Positions 290 to 63,494 of a stretch of DNA of 64,000 bases are shown in pieces. The notes beneath the pieces were generated by a model that searched no databases, was not told where the DNA came from, and saw only the letters and a list, made by a program, of their open reading frames with translations. Each line of letters opens with the position of its first letter. The first letter of the stretch is position 1. The position numbers were made by a program, and so were the translations under genes. This stretch comes from an uncultured Acidobacteriota bacterium. Lineage in GTDB: Bacteria; Acidobacteriota; Vicinamibacteria; Vicinamibacterales; 2-12-FULL-66-21. The stretch covers positions 366,144 through 430,143 of the forward strand of contig CAWGBU010000002.1 of NCBI GenBank assembly GCA_963820905.1, given 5' to 3'.

Positions 290-292
290 CCG

Positions 293-11534: not shown

Positions 11535-11559
11535 GCTGTAGTGTCCGGCTTCAGCCGGA
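11535..11559. repeat. REP-like hairpin element
   Basis: ctgtagtgtccggcttcagccggac. Confidence 0.8.
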
Positions 11560-13098
11560 CCTCACCCACCGGGCTTTTTGATCAGCCTGTCCAGGAAGCC
11601 CTTCAGTTCGTCCTTCGCCCTGTTGCGAAACGCGCGGCCGAGCGCGGCCTGCACGTCGATGAATACCGTAGGGCGACCCGACGGTCCCGTTGATCGTCGC
11701 CGGGAGCACGATGCGCTCCCCTTCGCGCGCGAGCCTGTACAGGTCGCGTCCGGCCTGCGCGCTGAGCTCCTTCGAGAGGACGACGTCCGTGCGAAAGGCG
11801 ATTGCCTTCGAGGCGAGCGAGAGGTTGCCCCGGCCGGTCATGTCGAGATCCCGCGATTCGAACACCAGGTCGCTCGTGGAGAGCCGCGGCCCGTCGATCG
11901 CGAGCGTCGCGGCGATCCGGTTGAACGCTTCGCCGGATCCTGCGGGGCGCTCGCCAGTCGACCTGCCGAAGGCGAGCACGACGCTCCGGACGATTTCGAG
12001 GCCGGGGATGCGGCCGTCCGTGGCCCTGACGCGCGCCGAGCCGCGCGCGTCGCGAATGGCCTCGGCGGGATCGGTACCTGGCGCGCCGAGGCTGATCGTG
12101 CCCGCGAGCCGTCCGGTGATCGAGCCGGGTGCTCCAGCGAACTCGGTCAGCTTCGGCACGTCGACGTTGTCGAAGCTGCCCTTCCACTCGTAGCGGCCGG
12201 CGTTGAGCGCGCCGCGGAAGGCCGCCGATCCCGTGTAGTTCCCGCCGAAGACGCCCATTCGCAGATCGTCGAGCAGCACGTCGCTGCCCCGCGCGCGAGC
12301 GGTGGCGCTCATGTCGGTGAGCCCGACGCCGAGCGCCCTGCCCTGCCGCGCGCGAATCCGTATCTCGACGTCGAGCGGCACGCGGACCGGAGGCGCCGCG
12401 CTCGCGGCAGACGGACGCGCCGCGCCGGCGGGCGTCGCCGCCGCGAGAAACGCCATCACCCCGTCGAGATCCAGCGTCTGCGCATCGACCGTGAACGTTC
12501 CGGTCCGCTTCGCGACGCTGGCGAGCTCGCCCGACGCCGTGAACGTCGAGGCATCCGACGCGCCGCGCATCTCGCGGATCACGAGGCGGTCGCCGCCGGT
12601 GAACGACCCGTCCAGGTTCACCAGCAGGGCGCGGTCGCCGGCCATCAGCGTCACGTCGCGCAGCGCGATCGTGCGAACGGAATCAACCGTGAGCGCGTAC
12701 GACGACGGCGCAGCCGGCGGTTTCGCTCCCGGCGCTTCGCCTGCCATGGCCGCCATGAGCGCGAGCGCCCAGCGCACGTCGATCCGGCTCTCCTCGACCG
12801 AGACGTCCGCCTCCTCGACGCGGCGCCGCACGAGCGCGCGGAGGCCCGTCGCGAGCCGGACGCGTTCGATCCGGACCTCGCGCGAGGAACCGATGGCGAT
12901 GCCGTCGAGGTCGAGGCTGACGCGGGGGAAGAACCGCGGGCTCGCGGTCCGAATCGTCACGGGCTGCCCGAGCGCAATCGTCGCCTGCGATTCGATCGCC
13001 GCCTTGATGCGATCGCCGCCGAGCGCGATGCGCACCGCGATCGCGAGCAGCGCCGCGAGAACGGCAATCACCCCGAGAAGGATCAGGAGACGCTTCAT
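11551..13098 (-). CDS. AsmA-family outer-membrane assembly protein
   Basis: The start MKRLLILLGVIAVLAALLAIAVRIA (ATG reverse complement at 13096-13098) overlaps the stop of the upstream deacetylase. An N-terminal TM helix is followed by an AsmA-like beta-rich domain. Confidence 0.6.
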   Translation of the reverse strand: MKRLLILLGVIAVLAALLAIAVRIALGGDRIKAAIESQATIALGQPVTIRTASPRFFPRVSLDLDGIAIGSSREVRIERVRLATGLRALVRRRVEEADVSVEESRIDVRWALALMAAMAGEAPGAKPPAAPSSYALTVDSVRTIALRDVTLMAGDRALLVNLDGSFTGGDRLVIREMRGASDASTFTASGELASVAKRTGTFTVDAQTLDLDGVMAFLAAATPAGAARPSAASAAPPVRVPLDVEIRIRARQGRALGVGLTDMSATARARGSDVLLDDLRMGVFGGNYTGSAAFRGALNAGRYEWKGSFDNVDVPKLTEFAGAPGSITGRLAGTISLGAPGTDPAEAIRDARGSARVRATDGRIPGLEIVRSVVLAFGRSTGERPAGSGEAFNRIAATLAIDGPRLSTSDLVFESRDLDMTGRGNLSLASKAIAFRTDVVLSKELSAQAGRDLYRLAREGERIVLPATINGTVGSPYGIHRRAGRARPRVSQQGEGRTEGLPGQADQKARWVRSG

Positions 13099-17163: not shown

Positions 17164-17168
17164 GATCC

Positions 17169-17492
17169 TCAGCCCGCGATCTTCTTCTCCAGCCTGCACA
17201 CGAAGAACACGTACATCGCAGGGATCAGCAGGCCGATGTGGACCGCGTTGAGTGAAACCGCGGAAACCATCCGCCCCCACACGAGCAGCACGGCCCCCGC
17301 GATCACCGACGCGACCCAGACGTTCCACTTGTCGGTCGATGCCAGCGCCACGGCCGGCGCCGCGATCCCCAGCGCGACGAGAGCCTGCGCCTGACGTCCG
17401 GCCTGCAGCAGACCGGAATCGAGCGCCTGCAGTCCGCCAACCACCACCGTCAACATCGCCCAGAGCAGTCTGTTGGTCATCATGCGAACCAC
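17169..17492 (-). CDS. Small membrane protein, unknown function
   Basis: 107 aa with 3 predicted TM helices. Confidence 0.35.
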   Translation of the reverse strand: MVRMMTNRLLWAMLTVVVGGLQALDSGLLQAGRQAQALVALGIAAPAVALASTDKWNVWVASVIAGAVLLVWGRMVSAVSLNAVHIGLLIPAMYVFFVCRLEKKIAG

Positions 17493-17567
17493 TCTGGCAG
17501 AGCGTGGACGGCGCGATCGGCGCCGGACGATGAGCGGTCAAATTGGCTGATGAATGGCGGAAAAGGC

Positions 17568-26575: not shown

Positions 26576-27609
26576 GTGTCGCTGCCTCTTGTAAAACGAG
26601 CTGCCGAGGACGGCGTGACGTCGGTGCCGACGCCGTCGCCGGAGACGACTACGGTCGAGGATCGTGTTCGTGCGATCTGGCAGGAGCGCTCCAGCAGGCC
26701 CGGCCGCGGCGCGCCGACTGCGAACTTCGACGGCAGGCGCGTGCTGACGCTCGAGAGCCGGCGCGCGCCGGAGCTTGCGCTGCTGGTGATGAACTACGGC
26801 GGCTGGCCCGTGGTGGCACCGTCGGTTCGCGAAGTGCCGCTCGCGGCGAACCAGCAGGCACTGACGTTTGCCAACGACGTCATCCGCGGACGCTTCGGCA
26901 TCGTCATTCTGATGACTGGTGTCGGCGTGAGACTGCTGATGAGAGTCATCGAGCCGGAGCTCGGCCGCGAGCGATTCCTCGAGGCGCTGACGCGCACGAA
27001 AATCGTCGCCCGTGGACCCAAGACCGTGGCCGCCCTGCGCGAGCTTGGCCTGACGGCGTGGGCAACGGTGCCAACCCCGAACACGTGGCGTGAGTTGCTG
27101 GCCACGATCGACGGCCGCGCCGACGAGGCGCCGCTCGATCGTCAGCAGGTGGCGCTCCAGGAATACGGGCTGCCAATCCGGACCTCCTGCAGGCGCTGTC
27201 TGCCCGTGGTGCGCACGTCACGTCGGTGCCGGTGTATCGATGGGCAATGCCGGCAGATGTCGAGCCGCTGCGCGACGCCGTGCGCGCCATCGTCCGAAAC
27301 GAGATTGACGTCGTCATCCTGACCGCGAGCATTCAGCTCGTCCACTTGCTGCAGGTGGCCCGCGACATGGGCCTGGAAGCCGCGATGCGCGGCGGGCTGG
27401 AACGAGTGGTCCTCGCGTCGATCGGCCCGATGACATCCGAGGAACTTCGTCATCACGGGCTGCCTATCGACTACGAGCCGTCCCACCCCAAGATGGGCTT
27501 CCTCGTCAAAGAGCTCGCCGAGAACTGCCGGACCTTGCTCGACGCGAAGCGACGTCCCGAAACCACGCCATCCACGGAAGCGGAGCGATGCACAGAAGCG
27601 ACGACCTAG
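26576..27609 (+). pseudogene. Uroporphyrinogen-III synthase (HemD/HEM4)-like domain protein, frameshifted near 27170
   Basis: From the GTG at 26576: ...RVLTLESRRAPELALLVMNYGGWPVVAPSV...LQEYGLP. The frame then changes by +1 at about 27170 and continues NPDLLQALSARGAHVTSVPVYRWAMPADVEPLRDAV...ASIGPMTSEELRHHGLPIDYEP. The two-half HemD-like pattern is recognisable, but the family assignment is moderate. Confidence 0.5.
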
Positions 27610-28334
27610 CGATCAGCGGCAGCGCAAATGCGAACGAGGTCATCGGCCGCGAATCGATCGGCTTTCTGCATGAGATCGGTAGCCGTTTTGCGGCCGCCGA
27701 TTCCCTCCAGACTGTCCTGAGCCGGGTCGTCAACTTCGTCTCGACCGTGGTCCGCTGCGACTCGTGTTTCATCTACGTCCTGGAGGACGATGCGCTGGTG
27801 CTGCGGGCGTCCAAGGATCCTCACACCGATATCGTCGATCGGCTCAAGCTGCGCGTTGGCCAGGGCATCACCGGTTGGGTTGCCGAGCATCGTCAACCGG
27901 TCGCTGTCGGTTGTCACGCCTTCGAAGATCCGCGCTTTCAAGTCTTCAACGATTTGCCGGAGGACAAGTACGAGGCGTTCCTGTCGGTGCCAGTGCTGTG
28001 CCGCGGACGTCTCGTCGCCGTCATCAACCTGCAGCATCGGTTTCCACACGAGCACAGCTGGGCCGAGATCCAGCTCGTCGCCACCATTGGGTTTCTCGTC
28101 GGCGCCGAGATCGCGCTGGCACGGCTCGAGTCTGAGAACAGCCAGTTGTCGGAGCGGCTCGAAACGCGTAAGGTCCTGGACCGCGCGAAGGGGATCCTGC
28201 AACGGGATCTCGGCATCAGCGAGGAAGAGGCCTACCTCACCATTCAGCGCCAAAGCCGGCAGCGGCGGCGATTGAAGCGCGAGATTGCGGAAGCGATCCT
28301 GCTGGCCGACGACCTGCGTCGCGGTCAGCGTTAG
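27588..28334 (+). CDS. GAF-ANTAR RNA-binding antiterminator regulator
   Basis: N-terminal GAF domain. C-terminal ANTAR motif: RKVLDRAKGILQRDLGISEEEAYLTIQRQSRQRRRLKREIAEAIL. Confidence 0.8.
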   Translation: MHRSDDLAISGSANANEVIGRESIGFLHEIGSRFAAADSLQTVLSRVVNFVSTVVRCDSCFIYVLEDDALVLRASKDPHTDIVDRLKLRVGQGITGWVAEHRQPVAVGCHAFEDPRFQVFNDLPEDKYEAFLSVPVLCRGRLVAVINLQHRFPHEHSWAEIQLVATIGFLVGAEIALARLESENSQLSERLETRKVLDRAKGILQRDLGISEEEAYLTIQRQSRQRRRLKREIAEAILLADDLRRGQR

Positions 28335-47736: not shown

Positions 47737-49743
47737 ATGATCTGGCGCGAGAAGCCAGGCGCCGCGCGGCCCATGCTGGCCACGCTCGCCGATCCACCGC
47801 TCACCGGCAGGAACCTCGTGTACGAGCCGAAGTACGACGGCATCCGCGCGATCGCGGAGCTGACGCCGTCGCGCGGCCGCGTCGCCGTGCACTTGTGGTC
47901 GCGGCTCGGCAACGAGAAGACGTCGCAGTTTCCCTCGATCGTATCGGCGCTCGAACACTTCGGCGCCGCGGCCAGGCGGCCGCTCGTCGTCGACGGCGAG
48001 ATCGTCGCGCTCGATCGCGAGGGCCGGCCGATGGGCTTCCAGCGGCTGCAGGGACGCATCCACCTCTCCGGCGCGAAGGACGTGCAACGCATCGATCGCG
48101 AGCAGCCGGTGGCGTACATCGCGTTCGACCTGCTGCGCGACGGCGACGAGGATCTCCGTGGCCTGCCGCTCACCGAACGCCGCGAGCGGCTCGATGAACT
48201 GTTCCAGCTGAAACACCCGGAGACTCTGCGCACCAGCGAACAGGCTATCAACGACGGCCGCGCGCTGCACTCGCGCGCCAGCCGCGAAGGGTGGGAGGGC
48301 CTCATCGTCAAGGATGCGAGCGCGCCCTATCAGTCGGGCCGGCGCAGCCCCGCCTGGCGCAAGCTCAAGCTCGTCCAGCAGCAGGAGTTCGTCGTCGGCG
48401 GCTGGACGGAGCCGCGGCAGACGCGTCAGCACTTCGGCGCGCTGCTGCTGGGCGTGCACGACGACGGGAAAAAGGGCCTGACGTACGTCGGGCATACGGG
48501 CACCGGGTTCGACGAGCGCGAGCTCGCCCGCGTCTCGAAGCTATTGAGGCCGCGGGAGACGCGCACGTCGCCGTTCAACGCGCCCATCAAGACGAACGAG
48601 CCCGCGCACTGGGTGAAGCCGGAGCTCGTCGCGCAGGTGCGCTTCACCGAATGGACCGACGATCGCAAGCTGCGTCATCCGGTCTACCTGGGGCTGCGGG
48701 ACGACAAGATGGCCAAACAGGTCGTACGGGAAGAACCGCCGGCGCCGCGCCGCGCGACATCGAAAACGCTCGACACATCGCACGTCGTCGAGCAGCTCCG
48801 CGCGCTCGAGGACGCGCGCAAGGACGGCACGATCGCGCTGCCCGACGGCACGCGCATCGGCGTCACCAACCTTGCGAAGCTCTTCTGGCCGAAGCTGAAG
48901 ATCACCAAGGGCGACCTGCTCCGGTACTACGCGACCGTCGCGCCGCTCATCCTGCCGGTCGTCGCCGATCGCCCGCTCGTCATGAAGCGGTTTCCGCACG
49001 GCGTCGACGGTGCGGCGTTCTATCAGCAGAAGAAGCAGAAGGAGCAGCCGCCGGAGGGGGTACGCGTCGAGGTACTGCCCGACGATCTCGATCCGATGTC
49101 GGAGCCGGGGGCGCAGCGCCTGATCGGGGGCAACCTCATCACGCTGCTGTACATGACGCAGCTCGCGGCGATCTCGCAGGACCCCTGGTTCTCGCGCGTT
49201 CAGTCGCCGCTCGACGCCGACTACGTCGCGCTCGACCTCGATCCCGACGACCACGCGCCGTTCTCGCGCGTGCTCGACGTGGCGCGATGGGTGCGCGACG
49301 AGCTGGAGTCGTTGAAGGTCACCGCCGTGCCGAAGACGTCGGGATCGAGCGGGCTCCACGTGTACGTGCCGCTGCCGCCGGGCACGTCGTACGAGTCGGG
49401 CCAGCTCTTCTGCCAGATCATCGCGACGGTCGTCGCGGCAAAGCATCCGAAGGCCGCGACCGTGGAGCGCAAGGTGAAGGCGCGTCCGCGCGGGACCGTC
49501 TACGTCGACTTCCTCCAGAACATCCTCGGCAAGACGCTCGCGACGGCGTACAGCGCGCGCGCCAGCGACTACGCCGGCGTCGCGACGCCGCTCGCGTGGA
49601 AGGAGATCGACGAGGGCATCGATCCGCGCGACTTCACGATCCTGACGGCGCCCGCGCGCTTTCGCGAGGTCGGCGATCTCTGGGCGCGTCTCCGCACGGG
49701 AAAGCCAGCCAATCTCGAGGCCGTCTTCAAGAAGTACTCGTGA
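47737..49743 (+). CDS. ligD: ATP-dependent DNA ligase LigD (ligase domain plus polymerase/primase domain; no phosphoesterase domain)
   Basis: Ligase motif [10 protein letters not shown] and an OB domain. The C-terminal LigD-Pol region ([14 protein letters not shown]...[12 protein letters not shown]). 668 aa. Confidence 0.85.
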
Positions 49744-49769
49744 GGGGGCTGCGGTATGATCGCGAGGAG

Positions 49770-50159
49770 ATGGGCAAGAAGTTCAAGGAACCCGAAGATG
49801 CGGCGGAGGCGTTCGGCGTCGGCAAGCTCACCCGCCATCTCTTCCTCTGCCTCGGTCCCGACTGCTGCGATCGCGACGACGGCGAGCGGACGTGGGACTA
49901 CCTGAAGAAGCGCATGAAGGAGCTGAACATCACGGGCGGCGACGGTCCCTTCTACCGCACGAAGGTCGGGTGCTTCCGCATCTGCACCGACGGTCCCATC
50001 TGCGTCGTGTATCCCGAAGGGGCCTGGTACCGCGACGTCACACCTCAGAACGCGGAGCGGATCATCCAGGAACACTTGATCGGCGGACGGGTGGTGGAGG
50101 ATCTGTGCTTCGCTCGCAACGAGCTGCGAACGCGATCAGTCGGTAGTCGGCTACTTTGA
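49770..50159 (+). CDS. Thioredoxin-like [2Fe-2S] ferredoxin
   Basis: ATG after GGAGA. The cysteine pattern LCLGPDCCD ... [12 protein letters not shown] matches Trx-like 2Fe-2S ferredoxins (NuoE-like). Confidence 0.65.
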
Positions 50160-50606
50160 GTATCGGATTGTGTATGGATTCTGGATTGCCCCGGTAGCTT
50201 CGATCGTCTGTCTCACCTGGATGACGAGGGTGGCCCCCTCGAGGCGCATGACAGTCGTAAGCACGTACGGCGCAGCGGCGTCCCGTACAGGCGTGCGCGT
50301 CACCAACGACTCCCCGTCCCAGACCGTGGTCGAAACCTGAACGTATTCCGGAGCGTTCGCCGGCTTGATGACGTTCCTGCTTTCGGACCCGTCGAGCTTT
50401 TGGACCCAGCGAATCACGCCAGACGGAGACTGAGTCTCAACTACGAGCGTGTCGGGGGTCTGCGAGATGGTCGTGGTCTCGACCGCTTCACCGGGTGACG
50501 TGGGGATCTTTTTCCACTTGCCGGAGAAGTCAGGTTTCGTCTGCTCCAGTCCGGCCGTGAGCGCCAGACTCAGAAGGAGCCGCGCGACAACCAGCATCAT
50601 GGGCAC
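50151..50606 (-). CDS. Secreted hypothetical protein (small beta-rich, lipocalin-like)
   Basis: Signal peptide [22 protein letters not shown]. 151 aa. Confidence 0.4.
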
Positions 50607-50669
50607 CTCGCTGCTTCATTTCACGCCGCTTCTTTGACTCCTCTAGGTCAGCGCACGGCGGCACCCGAC

Positions 50670-52670
50670 TTACTTCGGCACGTCCAGCGCAGGGTTGCGC
50701 GAGAAGAACCCGGCCGGGATCATCTTGAAGCCTACGTGCGTGACCGGCATCACCGGCCACTCCTCCGGCCGCGGCATGTGCGTGACCCCCATCGTGTACC
50801 AGACGACGACGTCCTGATTGGCCAGCGGCTCGTTGTTGGCGGCCCACGTCGGCAGACCCGGCGCCGCCGAGGCTCTGGTTCGGATACGCGCCGCCGGCGT
50901 ACATCTCGTCCGCGTTGTAGCGCGTGGCCCAGAAGTGATGGTTGATGAAGCCCGCGCGCTGCCGCACCTGTGAGGCCGGCCCCACATACGGGATCGAGTT
51001 CACGCCGGGCACGATGATGTAGCTGGTGTGAGAGCCGAGCGCGTTCTGCGCCGACGGATTGACGACGGCCCAGGTGCGCGCCGACGCCATGCTCATGTGC
51101 GCGCTGCGCGGCGGCCTCGGTCCCGAGCACGGTCTCCTTCATGATCATCCCGTTCAGCGCACGGATTGCCCGGCCCGGCCGGGAGCGCGCTGGTGTTCAT
51201 CTCGTGCACGGAGTTGCTCTGGCCGTCCACGTCGAAGTCGAGCCTGAAGTTGAAGAAGTGCTGGTGGTGCGGCGCGACGACGTTGGCGGCGACGAGGTGG
51301 CCGGACTGACGCCGGCGCCGTGCCGCCGGCCTTCGCGTCGCTCACGCCCTTCGGCAGCATGATGCCGGTCAGCGCGCCGTCCAGCTCCAGCACGCCGTCC
51401 TGGTGGAAGATCCAGTTGAGGGCGTAGTCGTAGTTGCCGATCGTGGCGATGAAGAAGATCACGAGCTGGCGGGCGCGGCGCGACTCGTTCGTCTTCGGAG
51501 TAGACCTCGTAGTGCTTCCACAGCATGCCGCCGTCGCGCTCGTAGATGCCGACCGCCCGCGGCAGCACGTACGGCTTGCCGTCGTCGCCCGCATAAGGTC
51601 GACGTCGAGCAGCGTCGCGTTCGGCGGCGCGTCGGTGTTCGGCTCGATCGAGCTGGCCAGCCGGCCCATGCCGTATTCGCCGACGTCGAAGGCGCTGCGC
51701 CAGCGCCAGTTCTTGTCCGTGTCGCCGTACGGCACCGCCATCTCGGAGAGCGACGGCGCGATAGAGGATCGGCCGCAGGCGCCCTTCGTCCTCGTAGCCG
51801 ACCGTGTGCAGCACGAGACCTTCGCGCGGGTGCATGGTGTAGCGGAAGCGCCACTTCTGCCAGCGTATCTCCTGGCCGGTGATGGTGAAGCTGGCGCCGT
51901 CGGGCTGGCTGATATCGAGCGCTTGGGCGCCTCACGCGCGCCGGTGGACTTCTCGTCCAGCTCCTGACTGGGCGGCGGCAGCGGGACGGACGCCGCTGTC
52001 GATGAACTCGACGACCTTCTCCGCGTTCATGTCGACGAGCGCGACGACCCCTTCGATCGGCCGGCCGTAGAAGTTGGTCTGCGTCGCCTTTGAAATAGGA
52101 CAGCGCGCGCAGCAGCCGCTTGCCCTGAAACTGCGGCGCGACCTGGCCGACGGCCCAGTTGTCGATCTGGACCTTGCTGAAATCCTCGATGCCGCGCTTC
52201 CGCATCGCCGCCTGCCAGCGCGGATCCTTCTTGACGATGTCGACCAGCACGTCGTATTCGTCCTCGAGCACGACCGGCTGCACGCCCTTTGATTTCGGTC
52301 CACGACACGACGCGCGGCGACTTCACGTCCACGACCGCTTCGAACGTGCGATTCCCCTTGCGATCCAGGATCACGGCGAACGCCCGCCGGGCGATCGGGG
52401 CGCCGGCCGTGAAGCTGAGCACGTCGCTCTTGGCGGGCTCCTTCAGCACGATCGTCGCGAACCGGGCCCCCTCCGGAAACTGCGGCACCGCGGCGAGCAG
52501 CTTGGCCGCCGTCTCGATCTCGGCGGCGCTCAAGGGATCGAGAGGATGCTGGGCTGCGGTTGCAGCCTGGGAGGGACCGGCGCGGCGGCGGTCTGGGCCG
52601 CCCGGACGGGCACGACGACGAGGGGGGAACAAGCCAGCAGGATGACGGCGGCGCGGCGGAAGAAGGTCAT
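50670..52670 (-). pseudogene. Copper amine oxidase (TPQ-containing), disrupted by multiple frameshifts
   Basis: Signal peptide MTFFRRAAVILLACSPLVVVPVRAAQ at 52670. The N2/N3 domains, the catalytic core with the TPQ consensus NYDY (LVIFFIATIGNYDYALNWIFHQDGVLELDGALTG) and the C-terminal DVVVWYTMGVTHMPRPEEWPVMP can be followed only by switching frame at least 5 times. One junction is consistent with a 1-nt indel (YPNQ|S). Confidence 0.75.
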
Positions 52671-53202
52671 GCGCGGATTATCGCCGAATTGGCTGAGCCG
52701 GCACTCGCGCCTGCCCAGAGTCAGCGGAATCGCGCCGGCGTTCGCGGGGTCACATCAGCCCCGCGGCGCCTCGGCCTACGCGCGGAAAACCGCACCTCCG
52801 GCGGCTCACGATCCCCGCGTCGGCTTGGGTTGCTCGAGGGCCGGTGAGCCATCAGCTTGCGGTACCGGGGAATTCCGGGCGGCGGTGACGAATCAGCGCC
52901 GACGCGGATCGGGACGCCTGCGGCGCGGTTTTCGATCTGACGCAGCGCGCTGGCCGCATCGCGCCGCGGGGCTGATATGACGGCGCCGACTGCTGACACC
53001 TAACGCTGACCGTGTATTCTCGCGCTGTCCCCGGTCAGCGTATCGCGATGGTGTCCATCCTTTCAGTGTGGTCGTGACAGGGTGCCACTTGCTATCCTGC
53101 AGGCGCGCGGCAGGGGCGTTACACAAGTAGGGACATTGATAGTTAAGCGCTGATGCTGGACCCTGTCTCAGGTCAGGCACCTCTAGGATCAGCGAGGCGG
53201 AT

Positions 53203-53312: not shown

Positions 53313-53855
53313 TCATTGCTTTTCAAAGACCGAGACATCATTGATTGTCTGACCCTTGGCGTTGATCCCTTCGGTTGTGATGGTCATGACTTTCCCGTCC
53401 CTCGAGATCACGCGCGTGCCAGTGATGACAACCCGGCCAGCTCTCTTCTGTGTAAAGTCTGCAGTGAAGGCGTCGATTCGCTTCAACGCAAGCGTATCGA
53501 TGTCTGGATCACCGGTCACCGGACGCTCCTTCCCATCGTAGACAATCGTCCATTCCCGAGTCGTGGTCTTCCCTTCGACGTCCACGACCGTGGAGGTCGC
53601 TTTGATTTCCTGGCGCACCGTCATGTACGTCATCGGTTTGCTTGCGCCTTTGGATGTCACCTTGGTCGCCTGGCCTTCCATGACGTACGTGCACGAGTCA
53701 CTCTGGGGAGCGGGGCCTGGGCTGAACTTCGATTTCGCGACATTCAGCACCCACGTGCCGATGATCGGGTCGGCATCCTGAGTCGCCAGAGGCCTTCCGA
53801 ACGGCATGAGGATGATTCCGAGGACCGTGAGGCATCGAAGCATGCGCCTGTTCAT
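53313..53855 (-). CDS. Secreted lipocalin-like hypothetical protein
   Basis: Signal peptide; GTWVLNVAKSKF... beta-rich. 180 aa. Locally lower GC. Confidence 0.45.
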   Translation of the reverse strand: MNRRMLRCLTVLGIILMPFGRPLATQDADPIIGTWVLNVAKSKFSPGPAPQSDSCTYVMEGQATKVTSKGASKPMTYMTVRQEIKATSTVVDVEGKTTTREWTIVYDGKERPVTGDPDIDTLALKRIDAFTADFTQKRAGRVVITGTRVISRDGKVMTITTEGINAKGQTINDVSVFEKQ

Positions 53856-55655: not shown

Positions 55656-55732
55656 TGGTGCGCCCGGCAGGGCTCGAACCTGCAACCTTCGGCTCCGGAG
55701 GCCGACGCTCTATCCAATTGAGCTACGGGCGC
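55656..55732 (-). tRNA. tRNA-Arg (anticodon CCG)
   Basis: Reverse complement GCGCCCGTAGCTCAATTGGATAGAGCGTCGGCCTCCGGAGCCGAAGGTTGCAGGTTCGAGCCCTGCCGGGCGCACCA. Cloverleaf with anticodon loop CTCCGGA, encoded CCA. Confidence 0.9.
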
Positions 55733-55830
55733 AGACAGTCGACAGTCGGGAGTCGTCAGTCGGGAGTCGTCAGTCGGTAGTCTCAGTCGACAGTCAGAGT
55801 CGACAGTCGATAGCTCGAGACAACTTGACC
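55733..55830. repeat. Tandem hexamer array (CAGTCG)n immediately 5' of tRNA-Arg(CCG)
   Basis: cagacagtcgacagtcgggagtcgtcagtcgggagtcgtcagtcggtagtctcagtcgacagtcagagtcgacagtcgatag. Confidence 0.85.
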
Positions 55831-55935
55831 GTCCGCAAACCCCAATCGTAGCACAGCGGAAAGCGCTCCATCCCGGGGCGCCTTGAACGCGCGTCAGCCG
55901 ATGCATTGTGAGCGACGAGAATCCGCGACTCGGGA

Positions 55936-58900
55936 TCACGCGATCTCGATGAGCTCGCCTGAACGTACGAGGCACACAGAAGAACTGACAGGCCGGTGGA
56001 GAACGGCGGAGAGCGTGGCGGCATAACCGCTCAACTGCTCCGAACGCTTCTTCAATGCCTCCGGCGCCAGCACTGTGTCGGTCTTGAAGTCCACGAGACG
56101 CCAGCCGTTGTCAGTCTCGAACAACAGATCGACCTTCGCCTGCATCCTTCCTTCAGGCGCGTTTCCGGCCACGGGCACGTCGCGGAACACGCGTCTGGCG
56201 CGCTTGACCTCCGCGATCGGCGACAGGTTCAAGGTCCGGCGCACGATTTCGATCGCGCTCGCCACTTCCGGCTCGGAGTGGCCGTACGGTCTGGCCAGCG
56301 TGCGGCCGATCCGTTCGAGATCCTTTCCGCTGAAATCAACGGCCGACAGGATCTCGTGCAAGTACTGAGCGAACGACGATCGTTCCAGTCCACCAGCATC
56401 TTCGGGCGCTGGCGCTGTCGACGACAGTTCATGCGGCTCACCTTCGGACTCGATTCCGTAGAGCCGCTGCGCGCCAGTGGACGCCGCGCGCCATGACGCG
56501 GGCGCTTCAGGCTCGTTCGATGGCGTCAGCAAAACAATCCCTCGTGCGCGGGCGCGCTCGCGATCGCTTCGCCGCGCCTCAATCCACGACTCCTGCGCCG
56601 CGCGCGCGCGACGGCCATCCTGAATGGCGCCATCGAGCGCGCCGGTCCCGCGAGGCACTGGAGCCGCGTCCACGTCGAACGCGAGCCGGCGCGAATCGAA
56701 CCACGAGACGCCGCCGCGCCGCTGGCCGAAAGGAATGTCCTCTGCCTCGCACACCAGCGGATTCGCCAGCGGCCCCAGCCAGCTCTCGACCGTCTGGCCA
56801 GGCAGGCAGGGGATCACCAGGTGATCGCGGGCGCGGGTCGCCGCTACATAGAGGAGACGCCTCCCTTCGGCGTCCTGCTCGAGATCCTCGTTCTGCGCCT
56901 GCTGCTCCCAACCGTCAGGCTTGAACTTGCCGATCTTCAGCCATCCTCGACGGCCAGCATGGTCGATGATGCAATCGCCGGACGGCACCCGGCTGGTGAA
57001 CAGGTCGGCGACGATGACGATCGGGTACTCGAGACCTTTGGCCTTGTGCACCGTGACAATCTCGACGCTCGCCCCGATCGGCTCTCCGACCGGCGAGTCG
57101 CCTTCCGCCTGGCTGCTCGCTTCCTCGTCCTGGAGAAACCGCACGAACGCACGCAACGTCGCCGGAGCGGCTGCCTCGTACGCCCGCGCGGTTTCGAGCA
57201 CCTTCCACAAGTTGGCCACGGCCTGCGCGCCGGAAGGTCTCGCCAGGAACGCCGGCAGCGCCCGCGTCCGCGAGAACAACTCCTCGATGATGACGGACGG
57301 CGACTCGATGCGGCGCAAGCGATGCAGCCGCGTCAGCATCTTGAAAATCGGTGCGAAGATCTCCAGCCCCTGCACCGACTCGTCCTGCGGCGCATTGATG
57401 TTGAGGATTCCGCCGGTCGACGTGAACAGGAACAGATCGGCGTCGCTCACGGCAAAGAACGGCGAGCGCAGCGCCTGGACGAGCGACAGCCTGTCCGCCG
57501 GGTTGTCGATCGCACGCAGTACCGATGCGAGCGCCCTGACCTCGTCGCGCGCGAAATACTCCTTGCCGCCGACGAGCCGGTAGCTGACCTCTCGAACGCG
57601 GAGCTGCTCTTCGAAGGGAGCAATGAACTCCGGCGTCATCTTGCGCACGAGGATCGCGACGTCGCCAGGCCGCGCCGCTCGCGACTTCTTCAGCTCGGGG
57701 TCGTACACACTCCAGGGCCTGGTGTCGGTGATCTCGCTGACGAACGCGGCGATGGTTTCGGCGACCGCGGCGCGTCGGACCGCGATGCTCGTCTCCTGGG
57801 GCACGCGATCGACGGGAAGAGTCAGCGCCACCGTGCGCGCGCCCTTGTCGTCCAGTTCGGCACGGTACGGTTGCAGATCGATCGGCGCTGGGTCTCCGGG
57901 CTCGGTAAAAATCGCGCGGAAGCGCTCGTTGATGAACGTAATCACCGACGGCACGGTCCGGAAGTTGGCGGTCAACGGAAGTACGTCCCCGCCGCACCGC
58001 TGCACCAGCGCTTTGACTTCCTCGTAGATCTTCAGGTCGGCGCGGCGGAATCTATAGATGGACTGCTTCGGGTCGCCGACAACGAACAGCTTGCCCGGAA
58101 GCAACGAGACACGATGCCAGTCTGTCGCCGGCGGCGTGGCCGGGTCCTCCGCAAGAAACGCGACCAGCTCGGCCTGCAGTGGATCGGTATCCTGGAACTC
58201 GTCGACGAGGATGCGGTCGAACCTCGCCTGGAAGTACCGGCGCACGGGTATCGAGCGCACGATGACGTCGCGCGCACGTATCAGCAAATCCTGGAAGTCG
58301 GCGAGGGCGCTCTCCGATTTTCTCTGCTGGTACCGTTGCAACAGATCCAGCAGCCGGCCGCGCAGCGCCGCGTTCAGGTCTGCGTCTGCTTCTTCAACCC
58401 ACGCCTCGACTCGTTCCTTCACACGCTTGAGCTCGGCTTTGACGTCGGCGCACACGGACTTCGGATTCCAGTTGCCTTGCGTGCCTTTGTGCGCGGTGAT
58501 TTTCAGCCGGCGGAAGAAGAGCTCGAGCGCCGTCCCCGACAGCCGCTTCGCCTGCCGCGCGCGCTCGTCCAGTTCCTGGATCATCTGGAACGCGGCGTCG
58601 GCTTCGTTGACGCAGTGAGCCTGTTGTTTCTTCAAGCCTTCGATCGCCTCGAAGATCTCGGCGAGGAATGCCGGCGGATCGATCGGGTCGTGCTCGACCG
58701 GCAGACCCAGCACGTCGCGCTCGCCGGCGGCAATCCGCGCCGCGCGCTGCAGGTCCCCTATGGCCAATCCAATGTTCACCGCCCGCATCAGGACAGGGTC
58801 CCCCGCCGCCAGCCGATCCTCGATCCACTCGCTCCACGTGTCGTCGAACGTTCGTCTGCCCGCGACGTCGGCGATCACCTCGAAGCCAGGATCGACGCCC

Positions 58901-59256
58901 GCCTCGAACGGCCGCTCGCGAAGCAACGCGGACGCGAACGCGTGGATGGTGGAGACGTGCGCGCGCTCGAGGTCGACGAGCGCGCGCGACAGCCTGGGCG
59001 CCTGCTCGGGTGCCGATGACGGGATAGCGCTTTCGAGCGCATCGCGGAGCCGCAGCTTGAGCTCGCCGGCGGCCGCCTCGGTAAAGGTTATCGCCACGAC
59101 TCGATCGAGCGTCGTCGTTCCCGTCACAACCAGGTTCACCAGTCGATCGACGAGCACGGTCGTCTTGCCGGTGCCCGCCCCGGCTTCCAGGACGATCGTG
59201 GTGGCGAAGTCGGTGCGGACGCGATCGCGGATTGCCTGATCCGGAGCGGGTTTCAC
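55936..59256 (-). CDS. AddA-like ATP-dependent helicase/nuclease (UvrD-family helicase plus C-terminal PD-(D/E)XK nuclease)
   Basis: Intact 1106-aa ORF. Walker A GAGTGKT, UvrD helicase motifs, and a C-terminal nuclease region. Confidence 0.8.
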   Translation of the reverse strand: MKPAPDQAIRDRVRTDFATTIVLEAGAGTGKTTVLVDRLVNLVVTGTTTLDRVVAITFTEAAAGELKLRLRDALESAIPSSAPEQAPRLSRALVDLERAHVSTIHAFASALLRERPFEAGVDPGFEVIADVAGRRTFDDTWSEWIEDRLAAGDPVLMRAVNIGLAIGDLQRAARIAAGERDVLGLPVEHDPIDPPAFLAEIFEAIEGLKKQQAHCVNEADAAFQMIQELDERARQAKRLSGTALELFFRRLKITAHKGTQGNWNPKSVCADVKAELKRVKERVEAWVEEADADLNAALRGRLLDLLQRYQQRKSESALADFQDLLIRARDVIVRSIPVRRYFQARFDRILVDEFQDTDPLQAELVAFLAEDPATPPATDWHRVSLLPGKLFVVGDPKQSIYRFRRADLKIYEEVKALVQRCGGDVLPLTANFRTVPSVITFINERFRAIFTEPGDPAPIDLQPYRAELDDKGARTVALTLPVDRVPQETSIAVRRAAVAETIAAFVSEITDTRPWSVYDPELKKSRAARPGDVAILVRKMTPEFIAPFEEQLRVREVSYRLVGGKEYFARDEVRALASVLRAIDNPADRLSLVQALRSPFFAVSDADLFLFTSTGGILNINAPQDESVQGLEIFAPIFKMLTRLHRLRRIESPSVIIEELFSRTRALPAFLARPSGAQAVANLWKVLETARAYEAAAPATLRAFVRFLQDEEASSQAEGDSPVGEPIGASVEIVTVHKAKGLEYPIVIVADLFTSRVPSGDCIIDHAGRRGWLKIGKFKPDGWEQQAQNEDLEQDAEGRRLLYVAATRARDHLVIPCLPGQTVESWLGPLANPLVCEAEDIPFGQRRGGVSWFDSRRLAFDVDAAPVPRGTGALDGAIQDGRRARAAQESWIEARRSDRERARARGIVLLTPSNEPEAPASWRAASTGAQRLYGIESEGEPHELSSTAPAPEDAGGLERSSFAQYLHEILSAVDFSGKDLERIGRTLARPYGHSEPEVASAIEIVRRTLNLSPIAEVKRARRVFRDVPVAGNAPEGRMQAKVDLLFETDNGWRLVDFKTDTVLAPEALKKRSEQLSGYAATLSAVLHRPVSSSVCLVRSGELIEIA

Positions 59257-62200
59257 TTGACCTCCCGCATCCGGTAGAACGCCGCGAGGCGCGGGTCACC
59301 TTTCTTCCGCGCCGCTCGCATCTCCTTCTGTGGACCGCAGATGTCGAGGTAGTCGCAGTATTCACAGTCGTCCGCGATCGGCGCGAATACCCCGGCGCGC
59401 ACCGTGTCATCGAGCGTAACGAGAATGTGCTTGAGCGTCTCGCGCGCGGTGTCGGTGCCTTCGATGCGCTTCGTCTTGAACCGGCCGTAGGCCGTGCAGT
59501 GGTAGTAGCGCGATTCCGTCACGACATGCTTCGGATACGCCGACGCCGCGGCGAGAATGTAGATCGCGAGCTGAACGTTCCGGCCGCCCTTGAACTCGTC
59601 CTCGTCCTGCCACTTGTACTTGCCGCTCTTGTAGTCGGTCACGCGGACACGCTTCGGCTGTTGCGCGACGTCCACGCGATCCATGAAGCCGCTGAAGCTG
59701 AGGCTTCGGCCGCGCGCGAACTCGAACGCGACGTCATCGAACTCCAGCTCGAACTTGTCGGGCACGAACTCGGCTCCGTCTTTCGCTTCACGCTCGAGCA
59801 GATCGTCGAGATCCGCTCCCATCTGATCGCGCACCGCGCTCACGAGACCGGGATGAACGATCGTGCCGGCACGCATCAGTGCGGCAAACTCTTCGTCGAG
59901 AAGCTCCTGGCCGCGTCGCGCGATCGATTCCAGCGCTTCGGGCTTCAGGGGAAGCGCCTTCTGACGCTTGAGCTCAGAGAACAGCTGCTCGAGCACATCG
60001 TGCATGATGTTGCCGGCATCACGCCGGTCCAGCGCATACGTGCGCTCCGGCTCTTCCCAGGGGCGCAGCTTGAGGCCGAAGCGCAGGAAATGGCGGTACG
60101 GACAGGTCGCAAGCGTCTCGACTTCGGTCGCGGACACCTGACGTCCCTTGAGGGAGAGCTCCTTCAGCGCGTCCTTGCATGTATCGACGTCGACCAGCCC
60201 GTCCCACGGCGTCAGCGAGCGGCGCCACGATGCGCGCTCGGCATCGCGAGACCGCCGGACATTCGGTGCCTCGTCCACGAGATGCCGGGCCGCGCCCTTC
60301 TCGCCGTAGGCAGCGAGCGCCAGGTCGCGCTCGAACACGTCGACGGCGCGATCGGCCTTTTTCGGATACGGACGCCCGAGCGTCGTCTCTCCACCAGACG
60401 CCAGCGCCGCGAGCTGCTCCGCAGACACGCGCGTGCCGATGGCAGCCCTTGCTGCGCGCAGTAGAAACGAAGACGGCACGCGGTCCCGTCCGGACTGCCC
60501 GTCGACGCGAGGGTACGAGAGGACGAGCCTCTCGCCCGCTGCGGCGCAGGCGTCGACGAATTCGAGGCGTTCTGCTTCCTGTTCGTCTGCGCTCGTCCGG
60601 AGTTCCGCCGAGAGCGCCGAGCGCTCCTCGTCGAGCAGCAGAGGGTCTGGGCGCGCAACCGACGGAAAACGCCGCTCCACGAGGCCTGGCACGAACACGA
60701 CGCGGAAGCGAAGGCCCGCGGCAACGCTCGTCGGTCCGACGAACACCCGTCCGTCGGCAAGCGATCCTTCGCGATACACCTGTGAAGCGATCAGCTCGCG
60801 TACACGGGCGAGGAACTGCGCCTGCGTCGGAGTCGGGCCGAATCGATCGAGCGGGCCGATCAGACGTTCGAGGCGCTCCTTCGTCAGCTGACCGCGGTCA
60901 ATCCAGCCGGATAGAAGCGCAAGCGTGGCGTCCAGGAACTCGCGCCACGCACCCTCTTGCGGAAAGCCTGTCAGGTCTCGATGGAGCCGCTCGACGATGG
61001 CTTCGAGCGAGTCGATGAGCGCGACTTCATCCTCGAACTCGCGCTCCTCGGCGTTTTCCCTGGCAGCCCGCAACCCGGTGCGCCATTGGTCGATGCCTGA
61101 GACGATACCCGCCCGCGCCGAGATTCGGTCCCATCGTGCCGGGCTGATGCGGGCGTCTTCACCGAGAATTTTCTGATACGGGATGCGTGCCGTCGTCAGG
61201 AACTCGGCGACCTGGGCACGATCGAGGTCGGCGCCGGCGAGATCGAGCAGCAGTCCGAGCGCGCGGGCCGCCGGGTCGACGCGTGGCACACCGTCGAGGA
61301 AGAACGCGCTGATGCCTGCACGGTCGAACGCCGACGCAAGGTGAGAAGCGTATGTCGAGGGCGTTCGCAGGAGCACGGCCATCTCCTGAAACCTCACCCC
61401 TCGTGCCGCTTCGTCCAGGATGAGGCGAGCGATTTCGACCGCCTCGAGCGACTCGCCCGGTGCGGACAAGAACTGCACCGACCAATCGGCTCCGCGCGCT
61501 TTCGTGTGGCCGTCCTCTGCGAACACCGAGCGCTGCACGCGCGCCAGCGCGCTCTCCTTCTTCGGTGTGGCAACGCACGGCACACAAGCCACGCCCATGC
61601 GCGACGTCGCCCGTGTGGCCGCTGCCTCGCGCCGCGGCGCGGTTCCTGCGGTCCGATTCGAGCCCACCCACGCGAACGGATGCACGCGCGCCGCCGTCCC
61701 GAGGAGCGCCTCGAAACCAGCGGACTCGAGGGCGTCTCCGACGAGGACGATGCCAGCGGCTTCGAGCGGCAACCGCTTCCGCCGCGCGGCGATAAACGGA
61801 CTCGCGATCCAGCAGGCCCGCCGCTTTCAAACGCGCGAAATACGTCCGCGCCAGGCGTGCGAGGAGTCGAGCCTTCTCGGGATCCGGCACCGTCGCCGCG
61901 AGCTGTTCGAGGCTCTCGGCTGCGACGCCAGCCGCGGACAGATCGCGCAGCGTGCGCAGCGCCGTTGGCGCGAACCCCGACATCTCAACCGCGTTCTTCA
62001 GATAATCGGGCGTCGCCTTCGCTACCGACGCTGCCGCCGCGGCGAGCACGATGGCGACGTCCACGTCTTCAGGAGTCGCCAGGAGTCCTTCGACGAGAGC
62101 CCGATGCCCGGCGATGCGCCACGCGAACTCATGCGGCATCTCGACGTGCACCGCCAGGCAGGCGCTGTCGTTGAAGAGCGCGCGCTCGAGAAGAGTGGCG

Positions 62201-62334
62201 AGCGCGTGATTCGGGACGATGACGTGGATGGGAAGGAGCGTCTCGGTCGAGCGCTGTTCCCGAATCGCCGCCTCGACCTGCGCCACGAGTTCAGGTGAGA
62301 CCGGCCAGGGCAACGAAGGCTTCGTGGCAGGCAT
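59253..62334 (-). CDS. AddB-like helicase-nuclease partner (PD-(D/E)XK nuclease with a Cys cluster), carrying one frameshift near 61770
   Basis: The N-terminus (MPATKPSLPWPVSPELVAQVEAAIREQ...) is in one frame up to ...YRRAAEAVA. The remainder (PLEAAGIVLVGDALES... through the C-terminal CPYRHF...CEYCDYLDIC Fe-S/nuclease motifs) is in a +1-shifted frame. The junction gaagcggttg|ccgctc is consistent with a 1-nt indel. Confidence 0.7.
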
Positions 62335-62395: not shown

Positions 62396-62472
<77 letters not shown>

Positions 62473-62690
62473 AAATCAGTCGACAGCCACACAGTCGTCA
62501 GTCGGCAGTCGACGGTCGTCAGTCCTAGTCGACAGTCACAGTCGACAGTCGACGGTCGCAGGTGATCGTCATCGTAGCACAACGACTACCGACTGCCGAC
62601 TGTGACTGTCGACTGAGACTGCCGACTGCACGACTGCCGACTGTCGACTGTCACAGTCACTGTCATCTCTTCTTGGCCGCTCAATTTCGT
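62473..62690. repeat. Palindromic tandem hexamer array, (CAGTCG)n then a central spacer then (CGACTG)n, 5' of tRNA-Arg(TCG); it overlaps the 3' end of the methyltransferase ORF
   Basis: aaatcagtcgacagccacacagtcgtcagtcggcagtcgacggtcgtcagtcctagtcgacagtcacagtcgacagtcgacggtcgcaggtgatcgtcatcgtagcacaacgactaccgactgccgactgtgactgtcgactgagactgccgactgcacgactgccgactgtcgactgtcacagtcactgtc. Confidence 0.85.
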
Positions 62691-63494
62691 TTTCGTGCCA
62701 CCCTTGGTGACCGTGCCTTCCATCACGTTGCCCTTCACGCGTCCCTCGTATTCCGCGCCGTCGGCGGTGAACCGAATCTGATCGCCGCGCAGCCGGCCGT
62801 TGCTGACCGAGGCCGCGGTGCCGCCGGACGTCAGCGTGCCGGACACCATCTGGAACTCCTGCGTCAGCGCGAGCTCGCCGGCGGGCAACACCCACGTGCC
62901 CTGCACCCTGGCCGGCACGATCCACAGCAGCGACGTGCACCAGTTCGTGCAGTCCTGTTCGAGCTGCTGTCGCTCGTCCGGCGTCCAGCCGGTCATGCCG
63001 AACGTGTTCGCGACGATGCGCGTGCCCGGTTTCATCTCGAGGAACTTCGGCGTGAGCCGGTCGAGGTTCTCCGTCAGGAGAAACAACGCCAGGACCGTTG
63101 CTTTCGAGATGTCCGCGGCGTACATGTCGCCCTGCACGAACGACGCTTTGTCGGCGACGCCTTCCTTCGCCGCCTCGCGATTCGAGAAAGTGACCAGATC
63201 CGGGTTGTACTCGACGCCCACGCCGCGGGCGCCGCGCTTCGCCGCCGCAATCACGTTGCGGCCGTCGCCGGATCCGAGATCCATCACGAAGTCAGACGAG
63301 GTGACCTTCGCCATGTCGAGCATCTTCTCGACGAGCGCGGGCGAGGTCGGCACCCACACCGCGTCCTTGCCCGGCTGGCCGACCTGCGGCTTGTACTGAT
63401 CGGGCGCGGTCTGCGCCAGCACGGGCGCCGCGGCCGTGAGCACGGCGCCCACCATCGCACCGAGGATCATCGTGAAACGCGAACTGCGAACCAT
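62586..63494 (-). CDS. Secreted class I SAM-dependent methyltransferase
   Basis: Signal peptide. SAM-binding motif I VMDLGSGDGRNVIAAAKRG. The last 30 or so codons (VTVTVDSRQSCSRQSQSTVTVGSR) are encoded by the hexamer array, so the true stop is uncertain. Confidence 0.65.
   Translation of the reverse strand: MVRSSRFTMILGAMVGAVLTAAAPVLAQTAPDQYKPQVGQPGKDAVWVPTSPALVEKMLDMAKVTSSDFVMDLGSGDGRNVIAAAKRGARGVGVEYNPDLVTFSNREAAKEGVADKASFVQGDMYAADISKATVLALFLLTENLDRLTPKFLEMKPGTRIVANTFGMTGWTPDERQQLEQDCTNWCTSLLWIVPARVQGTWVLPAGELALTQEFQMVSGTLTSGGTAASVSNGRLRGDQIRFTADGAEYEGRVKGNVMEGTVTKGGTKTKLSGQEEMTVTVTVDSRQSCSRQSQSTVTVGSR

Follow-up and report, generated by a model that had tools for sequence, protein, structure and literature searches.

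Clustered frameshifts in an acidobacterial copper amine oxidase gene are probably consensus errors of a strain-mixed long-read metagenome assembly

Background

The deposited DNA of one uncultured acidobacterium contains a copper amine oxidase gene that is broken by repeated changes of reading frame and is flanked by intact genes. The question raised by this locus is whether the gene is decaying in the organism or was damaged during sequence reconstruction. It lies in a stretch of 64,000 nucleotides (hereafter named the window), of which a preliminary description had been made from the sequence alone. In that description, the concentration of the frame changes in two genes was taken as an argument against uniformly distributed sequencing error.

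Results

Identity of the oxidase

The identification of the gene product as a TPQ copper amine oxidase carrying every hallmark (leader, IGNYDYA, HHQHFF and VVWYTMGVTH) was confirmed, and the stitched protein was covered by Pfam domains from end to end. Cu_amine_oxidN2, N3 and Cu_amine_oxid (PF02727/PF21994/PF02728/PF01179) were matched over their full length, with PF02727 at residues 41-124 and PF02728 at residues 131-227, in order before PF01179, which spans residues 251-657 (model positions 2-407 of 407, E = 3e-137). The N-terminus is a hydrophobic leader, MTFFRRAAVILLACSPLVVVPVRA, visible in the sequence as a putative export signal.

The oxidase (residues 40-658) was aligned to residues 93-721 of Escherichia coli TynA (PDB 1D6U, 1OAC; alignment to 1D6U, E = 9e-124), and its residues 41-660 were aligned to the phenylethylamine oxidase AGAO of Arthrobacter globiformis (PDB 1AV4, E = 2e-122). 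The motif with the TPQ precursor tyrosine, IGNYDYALNW, which can be read directly at ~51440-51420, corresponds to VGNYDYIFDW of TynA. The copper-ligand and base regions of the two proteins also correspond (HHQHFFNFRLD and THQHIYNFRLD; MGVTHMPRPEEWP and TGTTHVARAEEWP; FDVGEYGMG and LDSGDYGMG). Hence, NYDY, HxH plus a distal His, the Asp in FDxGE/DYG and the N2, N3 and catalytic domains of TynA and AGAO are all kept; we take the ligand histidines (HxH and the distal His) and the catalytic Asp base to be those known from the structures of these two enzymes. The oxidase has no counterpart of the additional N-terminal domain of TynA (residues 1-92 of the chain) and is therefore AGAO-like in architecture. 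Primary-amine oxidases convert primary amines into aldehyde, ammonia and hydrogen peroxide. Close homologues number in the thousands, are annotated as 'primary-amine oxidase' and occur in soil metagenomes and Pyrinomonadaceae MAGs. Judged from its sequence, the gene most likely encodes an ordinary, predicted periplasmic copper/TPQ primary-amine oxidase of a soil acidobacterium with Vicinamibacterales relatives.

Restoration of the reading frame

The hallmarks are indeed scattered over different frames. They had been assigned to at least five reading frames, a number that one strand cannot provide; translation of 52670..50670 placed the pieces in all three minus-strand frames, with at least 12 switches between them. 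Nucleotide alignment with intact orthologues resolved the disruptions into 14 one-base indels, 10 extra bases and 4 missing ones (Table 1). When these 14 positions were edited, an open reading frame of 664 aa without internal stops was obtained. The corrected ORF is 89.3% identical to the closest intact orthologue (P0001), likewise of 664 aa, and between successive frame shifts the encoded protein is perfectly conserved. The deposited coding sequence is thus interrupted, and continuous only once the 14 indels are corrected, unlike the TynA and AGAO genes. Two further length differences in the upstream spacer, of 4 bases at 52709 and 1 base at 52759, were seen against the same-species sister contig alone and may be natural variation.

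Table 1. Coordinates of the features discussed, as positions of the window
Feature	Position	Strand	Remarks
TonB-dependent-receptor-like outer-membrane protein (CarboxypepD_reg + OMP_b-brl_4)	1792-4796	plus	frame-broken
Receptor error block	2079-5564	strand-neutral	extends beyond the stop codon (4796)
AsmA-like gene	11541..13098	minus	private extra base at 11669-11674, near the 3' end
Ser/Thr kinase gene	~14341-15389	minus	three frames; shifts in and beside a repeat-rich insert (14564-14820)
HemD-like gene	26615-27567	plus	A lost at 27175 (AAA to AA)
LigD (ligase + primase-polymerase)	47737-49743	plus	intact ORF
Thioredoxin-like ferredoxin	49740-50126		intact ORF
151-aa gene	50151-50606	minus	64 bp downstream of the oxidase, same strand; intact; no Pfam family
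TPQ copper primary-amine oxidase gene	50670..52670	minus	from hallmarks, Pfam and stitched translation
Oxidase-region error block	50856..52759	strand-neutral	14 indels and two upstream-spacer length differences
Oxidase, extra bases	52287, 52083, 51989, 51753, 51599, 51598, 51493, 51158, 51099, 50856		orthologue alignment
Oxidase, missing bases	52573, 51924, 51325, 51308		orthologue alignment
180-aa gene	53313-53855	minus	upstream of the oxidase; intact; no Pfam family
AddB-like gene, C-terminal PD-(D/E)XK nuclease domain	59253..62334	minus	private extra C at 61773

Neighbouring and other genes

The neighbours were found intact, as described before: LigD, the ferredoxin and the two small flanking genes are all open ORFs. 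Both small genes had been called lipocalin-like. This holds for the downstream 151-aa protein in the broad (calycin-type) sense, since its model is an all-beta barrel (pLDDT 83.9) resembling the FABP/CRBP barrels (Foldseek against PDB, E = 3e-5, TM 0.5-0.57). The 180-aa protein is conserved at 90% identity or more across many contigs (cluster of 18 members), and its single-sequence structure prediction reached a pLDDT of only 31, too low to read a fold from it. Direct comparison of the two flanking proteins revealed no sequence similarity between them.

All five genes listed as disrupted (oxidase, TonB receptor, kinase, HemD-like and AddB-like) proved to be so; the total has to be raised, an AsmA-like gene being the sixth. 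The orthologues of the latter in assemblies L010 and L015 are intact (511 aa). In the HemD-like gene the Pfam HEM4 domain runs unbroken across the missing base, and the HEM4 gene of the sister contig is intact (331 aa). The frame changes of the kinase were seen in translation, and stitching recovered both Pkinase halves. The AddA-like gene is clean here, as stated earlier, forming a single intact ORF of 1106 aa (55936-59256), and kdpA/B are likewise clean in the window.

Comparison with sister assemblies

A comparison with orthologues had been proposed, and it was performed as a five-way alignment of the oxidase that included L013, of the same species (96-98% identity overall, 98.2% in the oxidase segment), and L014 (~92%). 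Of the 14 indels, 11 were absent from both L013 and L014, being private to the window assembly. As for the others, the insertion at 51989 is identical in L013, the one at 51158 also occurs in L014, and the extra base that L013 has at 51753 is not that of the window. The oxidase gene of L014 contains 11 insertions private to that assembly, and L013 has others.

Damage of the same kind was found elsewhere in the sister assemblies. Their LigD genes contain 11-20 private one-base insertions each, while LigD of the window is clean. The sister assemblies, which belong to one ENA accession series, show like blocks in other genes (LigD, kdpA/B, AddA). When the whole window was compared with the same-species contig (59.8 kb), single extra bases numbered 71 in the window as against 102 in the sister contig; those of the sister fall mainly in the same receptor block and in LigD, kdpB and AddA, which are intact here. 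The gene calls of the sister contig are fragmented accordingly, and in related assemblies the same proteins appear truncated. These close relatives were deposited in ENA and bear contig names of the Flye type ('contig_N'). A scan of genome contigs based on LigD found only one 86%-identical Vicinamibacterales MAG, in which the 50.1-62.4 kb part of the window is lacking.

Clustering and spectrum of the indels

Frameshifts in the window were called ab initio with a codon model (Viterbi) that included start and stop rules; genes were over-split when these rules were omitted, and with them one spurious shift was called, at 56574 in the intact AddA-like ORF. The model placed 14 of 28 frameshifts in the receptor and 9 in the oxidase. 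The strong clustering in two genes reported before was therefore upheld, and a uniform rate across the window fails (Pearson X2 = 210, df 61, P = 3e-18).

Relative to orthologues, one-base insertions far exceed deletions (~40 insertions in oxidase and receptor). All events in the oxidase involve one base, and the receptor has a few two-base events. Only 8 of 40 insertions (20%) extend a homopolymer, against ~50% expected (P = 2e-4), and 20 of the 24 C/G insertions in the receptor create a CpG (35% expected). Apart from CpG creation, no slippery or other common motif was found at the insertion sites; their contexts are diverse and their positions differ between assemblies. Three missing bases are homopolymer contractions, located at 51325 (GGG to GG), 51308 (AA to A) and 27175 (AAA to AA). 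A strand-specific spectrum of inserted bases (few T on the plus strand) was suggestive only, and T insertions were later found. The insertions fall on codon junctions 1|2, 2|3 and 3|1 in the proportion 9 : 13 : 18; the depletion at 1|2 is not significant, so codon phase alone gives no support to the idea that inserted bases are tandem alleles. Support did come from direct comparison with the sister alleles.

Inserted bases and alternative alleles

In 13 of 17 private insertions of the oxidase alignment, the inserted base is the sisters' alternative allele at the adjacent column (null 0.10, P = 3e-10). Matches in the receptor amounted to 6/14 and 5/12 (P = 0.003 and 0.008). For L014 the match was weak (4/62 in a three-way 20-kb alignment), presumably because its partner haplotype lies outside the sequences compared. 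Extra bases recur at polymorphic codons: at sites where both same-species assemblies have one, the sequences often differ. SNP divergence and the number of indels per kb are correlated (rho = 0.57, P = 2e-6). GC content was considered as a driver and discarded (rho = -0.03 with the indel count per kb).

Substitutions specific to the window are distributed 11/5/30 over codon positions 1/2/3 of the oxidase, and those of the intact P0001 lineage 29/16/55. The window lineage of the oxidase is still under purifying selection, and its constraint is not relaxed.

The TonB-type receptor

In the receptor gene, ~33 one-base insertions were counted beside a small number of deletions, and its stitched product is 87% identical to an intact protein of 993 aa (P0121). 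Six more single extra bases were located at 5068-5564, in the non-coding spacer 3' of the gene; nesting of the error blocks in single genes (chance ~0.002), which had been entertained, was dropped on account of this continuation. Within the block, SNP divergence between the window and its sister contig of the same species is 4-6%, against ~0.5-1.5% in most other 1-kb bins. The block at 2079-5564 is probably the same artefact as the oxidase block. Two of its insertions, at 2830 and 4360, occur in identical form in the window and in the sister contig.

Non-synonymous and synonymous changes in the receptor stand at 59:35 in the window lineage versus 22:40 in L010. Such an excess is expected from a mosaic consensus, and also from relaxed selection.

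Discussion

The organism very probably possesses an intact, ordinary amine oxidase, the 14 indels being consensus errors of a strain-mixed long-read metagenome. The frameshifts would then not be a real feature of its gene, and real gene decay is not supported by the sequences compared. According to this explanation, same-species strains with alleles diverged in kb-scale segments would occur together, and their reads would have been collapsed into a single consensus. At a SNP, this consensus would retain both alleles side by side, which would add one base, and the few classical homopolymer contractions would come on top. Because the collapse would be confined to polymorphic segments, errors would appear in blocks (those of receptor and oxidase here, and those in LigD, kdpA/B and AddA of the sisters) and leave the remainder clean. 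We infer the strain mixture, with alleles kept in tandem, from observed features of the 14 indels, which involve one base each, are for the most part insertions, lie largely outside homopolymers, are largely peculiar to the window assembly and fall where close relatives are polymorphic; their status as errors was judged by comparison between assemblies.

The step from non-uniform distribution to the exclusion of sequencing error, implied in the preliminary description, is hence not sustained: the indels are mostly private, have a non-biological spectrum, leave purifying selection untouched and add the other allele. The clustering, the private indels and the blocks in sister assemblies together indicate that the errors themselves are non-uniform. 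For the insertions at 51989, 2830 and 4360, identical in two same-species assemblies, a real shared mutation is possible.

An unlikely alternative is that the gene is intact and the indels are plain long-read consensus errors of a locally low-coverage or unpolished stretch, with no strain mixture. A block-wise distribution of indels, sister assemblies that are error-rich to a varying degree and three missing bases that are classical homopolymer contractions would all suit it. Nanopore consensus needs ~40x coverage, below which frameshift-causing indels are a documented weakness (PMC9262707). Random errors, however, would not match the alternative allele of the adjacent site in 13 of 17 cases, would not avoid homopolymers, would not follow SNP divergence and would not turn up at identical polymorphic codons in assemblies made independently.

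The proposed strain-mixed consensus errors resemble those reported for nanopore-only assemblies (PMC9262707), for which tools that correct frameshifts exist, e.g. proovframe (bioRxiv 10.1101/2021.08.23.457338), in that single-base indels break gene calls with varying severity. The errors in that literature are mainly homopolymer indels, whereas those found here are mostly insertions outside homopolymers that repeat the alternative allele of a SNP site, and they are grouped into kb-scale blocks within which strain divergence is raised. In the nanopore-error literature, which was not searched specifically for this signature, we met no description of it. Nanopore-only Flye assembly with one Medaka round is the pipeline of one soil project (PMC12313526), which may not be the source of this contig.

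That oxidase and receptor are genuine pseudogenes decaying in the window lineage is very improbable. Many disruptions in two genes with intact neighbours, one oxidase and two receptor insertions identical in two same-species assemblies, and the non-synonymous excess of the receptor would speak for decay. A frameshifted ORF beside intact neighbours is also what genuine bacterial pseudogenes present, e.g. those of recently host-restricted pathogens. These differ in having inherited disruptions, stop codons, relaxed constraint and a mutational indel spectrum, with indels of various sizes, frequent deletions and slippage in homopolymers, none of which is seen in the oxidase: most of its indels are private to one assembly and so not inherited, it lacks stop codons and its constraint is unrelaxed. 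Bacterial mutation is generally deletion-biased and slippage-prone, and the spectrum found here is insertion-biased, nearly all of one base and non-homopolymer. Long-read errors are mostly indels, and true prokaryotic mutations mostly substitutions (PMC12424758). A similar 'decay' affects LigD, kdpA/B, AddA and other genes of the sisters and is absent from them here, and the receptor block runs into non-coding DNA.

Real extra bases bypassed by programmed +1 frameshifting, transcriptional slippage or RNA editing can practically be discounted, as the perfect conservation of the protein between shifts is nothing specific to recoding, the sites share no motif beyond CpG creation, differ between same-species assemblies and also occur in non-coding DNA, and we know of no bacterial system that corrects dozens of such sites.

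Conclusions

The gene itself offers no new biology, and the practical point is one of data quality. Apparent pseudogenes occur in blocks in such long-read metagenome contigs, and counts of gene loss would be misled by them; clustering of frameshifts is no evidence that they are real. The tandem-allele signature and the link of the indels to local strain divergence provide a cheap, reference-free warning sign for error blocks.

Candidate islands of divergence, over a background of ~0.5-1.5%, are the oxidase and receptor genes together with LigD, kdpA/B and AddA. The chances are about even that the error blocks mark kb-scale islands at which coexisting strains of a single Vicinamibacterales species from soil hold alleles diverged by 2-6%. 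If so, one-base insertions of tandem alleles would be a fingerprint of these islands, helping both to find them and to recognise spurious pseudogenes in catalogues of nanopore-only MAGs.

Reconstruction of the copper amine oxidase gene

A complete copper amine oxidase gene was found in the window, its pieces spread over all three frames. The preliminary description of this gene as riddled with frame changes proved accurate, and 14 one-base indels were mapped in it by nucleotide alignment with orthologue DNA (loci L002 and L001) and then with two sister contigs. After 10 bases were deleted and 4 filled, a 664-aa open ORF without internal stops was obtained, 89.3% identical to the homologue P0001. 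The version stitched by hand (661 aa) matched more than 7,000 homologues, the top ones being P0001 (664 aa, 88%) and P0003 (669 aa, 83%), both unbroken and each with the full N2/N3/catalytic Pfam architecture. Pfam analysis of the stitched protein gave PF02727, PF21994, PF02728 and PF01179 (model 2-407 of 407). Its alignment with E. coli TynA (1D6U) covered residues 40-658 (E = 9e-124), and NYDY, HxH, the distal His and the FDxGE aspartate were each in position. Judged from its sequence, the protein is predicted to be an ordinary primary-amine oxidase.

The genes beside the oxidase, encoding LigD (ligase plus primase-polymerase), a thioredoxin-like ferredoxin and two small proteins (151 and 180 aa), are all open ORFs, as had been described. 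Both small proteins had been called lipocalin-like. Neither matched a Pfam family and no sequence kinship was detected between them. The name suits the 151-aa protein, for which a confident all-beta barrel model (pLDDT 84) was obtained with CRBP/FABP barrels as best PDB matches (E = 3e-5, TM 0.5-0.57); in the wider sense of calycins, its modelled fold can be called lipocalin-like. In L001, the small gene that follows the oxidase was not similar to the 151-aa protein, which gives no evidence of a conserved oxidase partner. The 180-aa gene copy of a related contig (contig_16049; L012) has no oxidase beside it.

Distribution of the frame changes

Frameshifts were counted with a Viterbi model built on codon usage, in which starts, stops and frameshifts are explicit transitions. 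It gave 28 frameshifts in ~54 kb of coding sequence, of which 14 lie in the TonB-type receptor gene and nine in the oxidase, the others occurring singly elsewhere. The per-gene distribution was grossly over-dispersed (X2 = 210, df 61, P = 3e-18), bearing out the claim that the frame changes cluster in two genes. The shifts reported in the HemD-like, AddB-like and kinase genes were also seen, and the list has to be extended to a sixth gene, the AsmA-like one.

Features of the window, with their positions
Feature	Position	Observation
TonB-type receptor gene	1792-4796	Error block reaches 5564, well beyond the stop codon
Codon model	4800-5800	No gene detected
370-bp non-coding segment 3' of receptor	4921-5293	89% identical to L010 238-607, ~10 kb away in that related contig; may be a dispersed repeat or local rearrangement
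Kinase gene		Three frames used in reading
Repeat in kinase insert loop	14771-14820	QSTVD-like units
NMT1_2 (nitrate/nitrite-binding-like) protein, HemD-like gene, GAF-ANTAR-type regulator	23223-24497, 26615-28334	Looks like a nitrate-assimilation regulatory neighbourhood
HemD-like gene		Single shift, confirmed by an unbroken HEM4 match and a 331-aa intact orthologue on the same-species sister contig
kdpA 5' region	36943	One extra C vs sister contig, near kdpA start; Pfam KdpA match starts only at model position 11
Most of 151-aa gene	50326-50663	338 bp lacking in same-species sister (L013/L017); 149-aa orthologue retained in L014
Oxidase gene	52670..50670, minus strand	Frame-broken
tRNA-Arg genes (anticodons CCG and TCG)	55656-55732, 62396-62472	In mutually similar ~160-bp segments bracketing the AddA-like/AddB-like pair
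Spacers adjoining tRNA genes	55736-55933, 62615-62697	Short, rich in tandem repeats (GACTG/CAGTC-type units); 2-48 bp length difference vs same-species contig
AddA-like gene	55936-59256	Single 1106-aa ORF; model-predicted shift at 56574 spurious
AddB-like gene	61773	Private extra C at this position

In L003, a Vicinamibacterales MAG locus syntenic at Ku-LigD, the ferredoxin is joined almost directly to what follows 62398 in the window. This suggests that 50.1-62.4 kb may be a variable stretch, possibly one inserted at a tRNA-Arg. The length differences in repeats look like natural variation, unlike the one-base events.

Comparison with close relatives

Contig_216144 of ERZ25039469 (L013, L015, L016 and L017) covers 59.8 kb of the window and belongs to the same species, because the aligned blocks are 96.3-99.4% identical. 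L014 (ERZ25039591 contig_57206) is ~92% identical. L010 (ENA ERZ25039565 contig_16049), the locus of P0121, a protein 87% identical to the stitched receptor, is syntenic to window 1-15190 (92-94.5% identical). The 'contig_N' names of the relatives and their accessions of the ENA analysis type suggest that they were assembled with metaFlye, and L007, from the genome scan, has a Microflora Danica MAG name.

The relatives' gene calls are broken at many sites: the oxidase is called as 355 aa or 266+96+105 aa and AddA as 174+80+571+187 aa; on the sister contigs kdpA is split into 383+109 aa and kdpB into 320+104+168 aa, and 3-4 pieces were called for each of LigD, Ku, AddA and the receptor. A cluster look-up showed that 90% protein clusters of window proteins include shortened copies that stem from three further long contigs. 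Public gene calls of L013, L014, L015 and L017 are fragmented on a large scale, and clusters from sister contigs are rich in truncated members (e.g. MacB-like permease of 889, 809 and 793 aa). Within 14829-16586 and 16970-17497, L010 (92-94% identical here) carries single extra bases of its own, one in the gene for the MacB-like permease (window 7090) and one in a gene of the metallo-beta-lactamase fold (window 9182); the window is intact at both.

The preliminary description had called for a comparison with orthologues. When this was run as a five-way oxidase alignment, 11 of the 14 indels were missing from both sister assemblies, and private insertions appeared at other sites in L014 (11) and L013 (a few). 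Across the window, 71 single extra bases were counted here, most of them in two stretches (39 in 2-6 kb, 10 in 50-54 kb), versus 102 in the same-species contig, where they are concentrated in the 2-6 kb interval, in kdpB and its neighbours (38-42 kb), in LigD (48-50 kb) and in AddA (58-60 kb). At sites with an extra base in both assemblies the surrounding sequences are often unlike, which favours repeated events at one codon over descent. Three events (51989, 2830 and 4360) are identical in both same-species assemblies and constitute the main residual doubt. These alignments indicate that the oxidase indels are mostly not inherited.

Origin of the frame changes

Site-by-site comparison with the sister sequences revealed that the base inserted usually matches the alternative allele of the adjacent site, as in GGG[T]CTG (relatives TTG or CTG), CGA[C]GCA (relatives G or C), AAGG[C]GG in L013 (relatives G or C) and CCC[G]CCG in L014, the union of GCC and CCG. 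Such tandem alleles accounted for 13 of 17 private insertions in the oxidase alignment (simulated chance 0.10, P = 3e-10), for 6/14 (window, P = 0.003) and 5/12 (sister, P = 0.008) in the receptor, and for 19/95 in a 20-kb three-way alignment (chance 0.045). Between the two same-species contigs, single-base length differences in 1-kb bins correlated with SNP divergence, columns near gaps being left out (rho = 0.57, P = 2e-6), and not with GC (rho = -0.03). SNP divergence reaches 4-6% in the receptor block against a background of ~0.5-1.5%.

It is well supported that the frame changes are an artefact. As to its mechanism, we consider it fairly probable that, in the error segments, reads from coexisting strains whose alleles had diverged were merged, and that the consensus kept both alleles in tandem. 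Nanopore consensus indels are known to break gene calls, ~40x coverage being needed (PMC9262707), and in long reads the errors are for the most part indels, while genuine mutations in prokaryotes are mainly substitutions (PMC12424758). The clustering had been taken to speak against uniformly distributed sequencing error; as an argument against sequencing error in general it fails, since in this window assembly error, too, comes strongly clustered.

Indel spectrum and selection

All oxidase indels are of one base, two-base events are limited to a few in the receptor, and insertions far outnumber deletions. Only 8 of 40 insertions extended a homopolymer (~50% expected, P = 2e-4), and 20 of 24 C/G insertions in the receptor gene created a CpG (35% expected). 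Typical homopolymer contractions occur among the few missing bases (51325, 51308 and 27175). This spectrum is not mutational.

In the receptor gene a non-synonymous excess was observed (59:35 vs 22:40). It is attributed to a mosaic consensus; relaxed constraint would produce it too. For the oxidase, lineage-specific substitutions polarised by outgroup numbered 11/5/30 at codon positions 1/2/3 in the window and 29/16/55 in the intact P0001 lineage (8/5/24 vs 24/11/42 with gap neighbourhoods excluded). This profile indicates that purifying selection on the oxidase is undiminished. Taken as a whole, the analysis does not regard the frame changes as a genuine feature of the gene.
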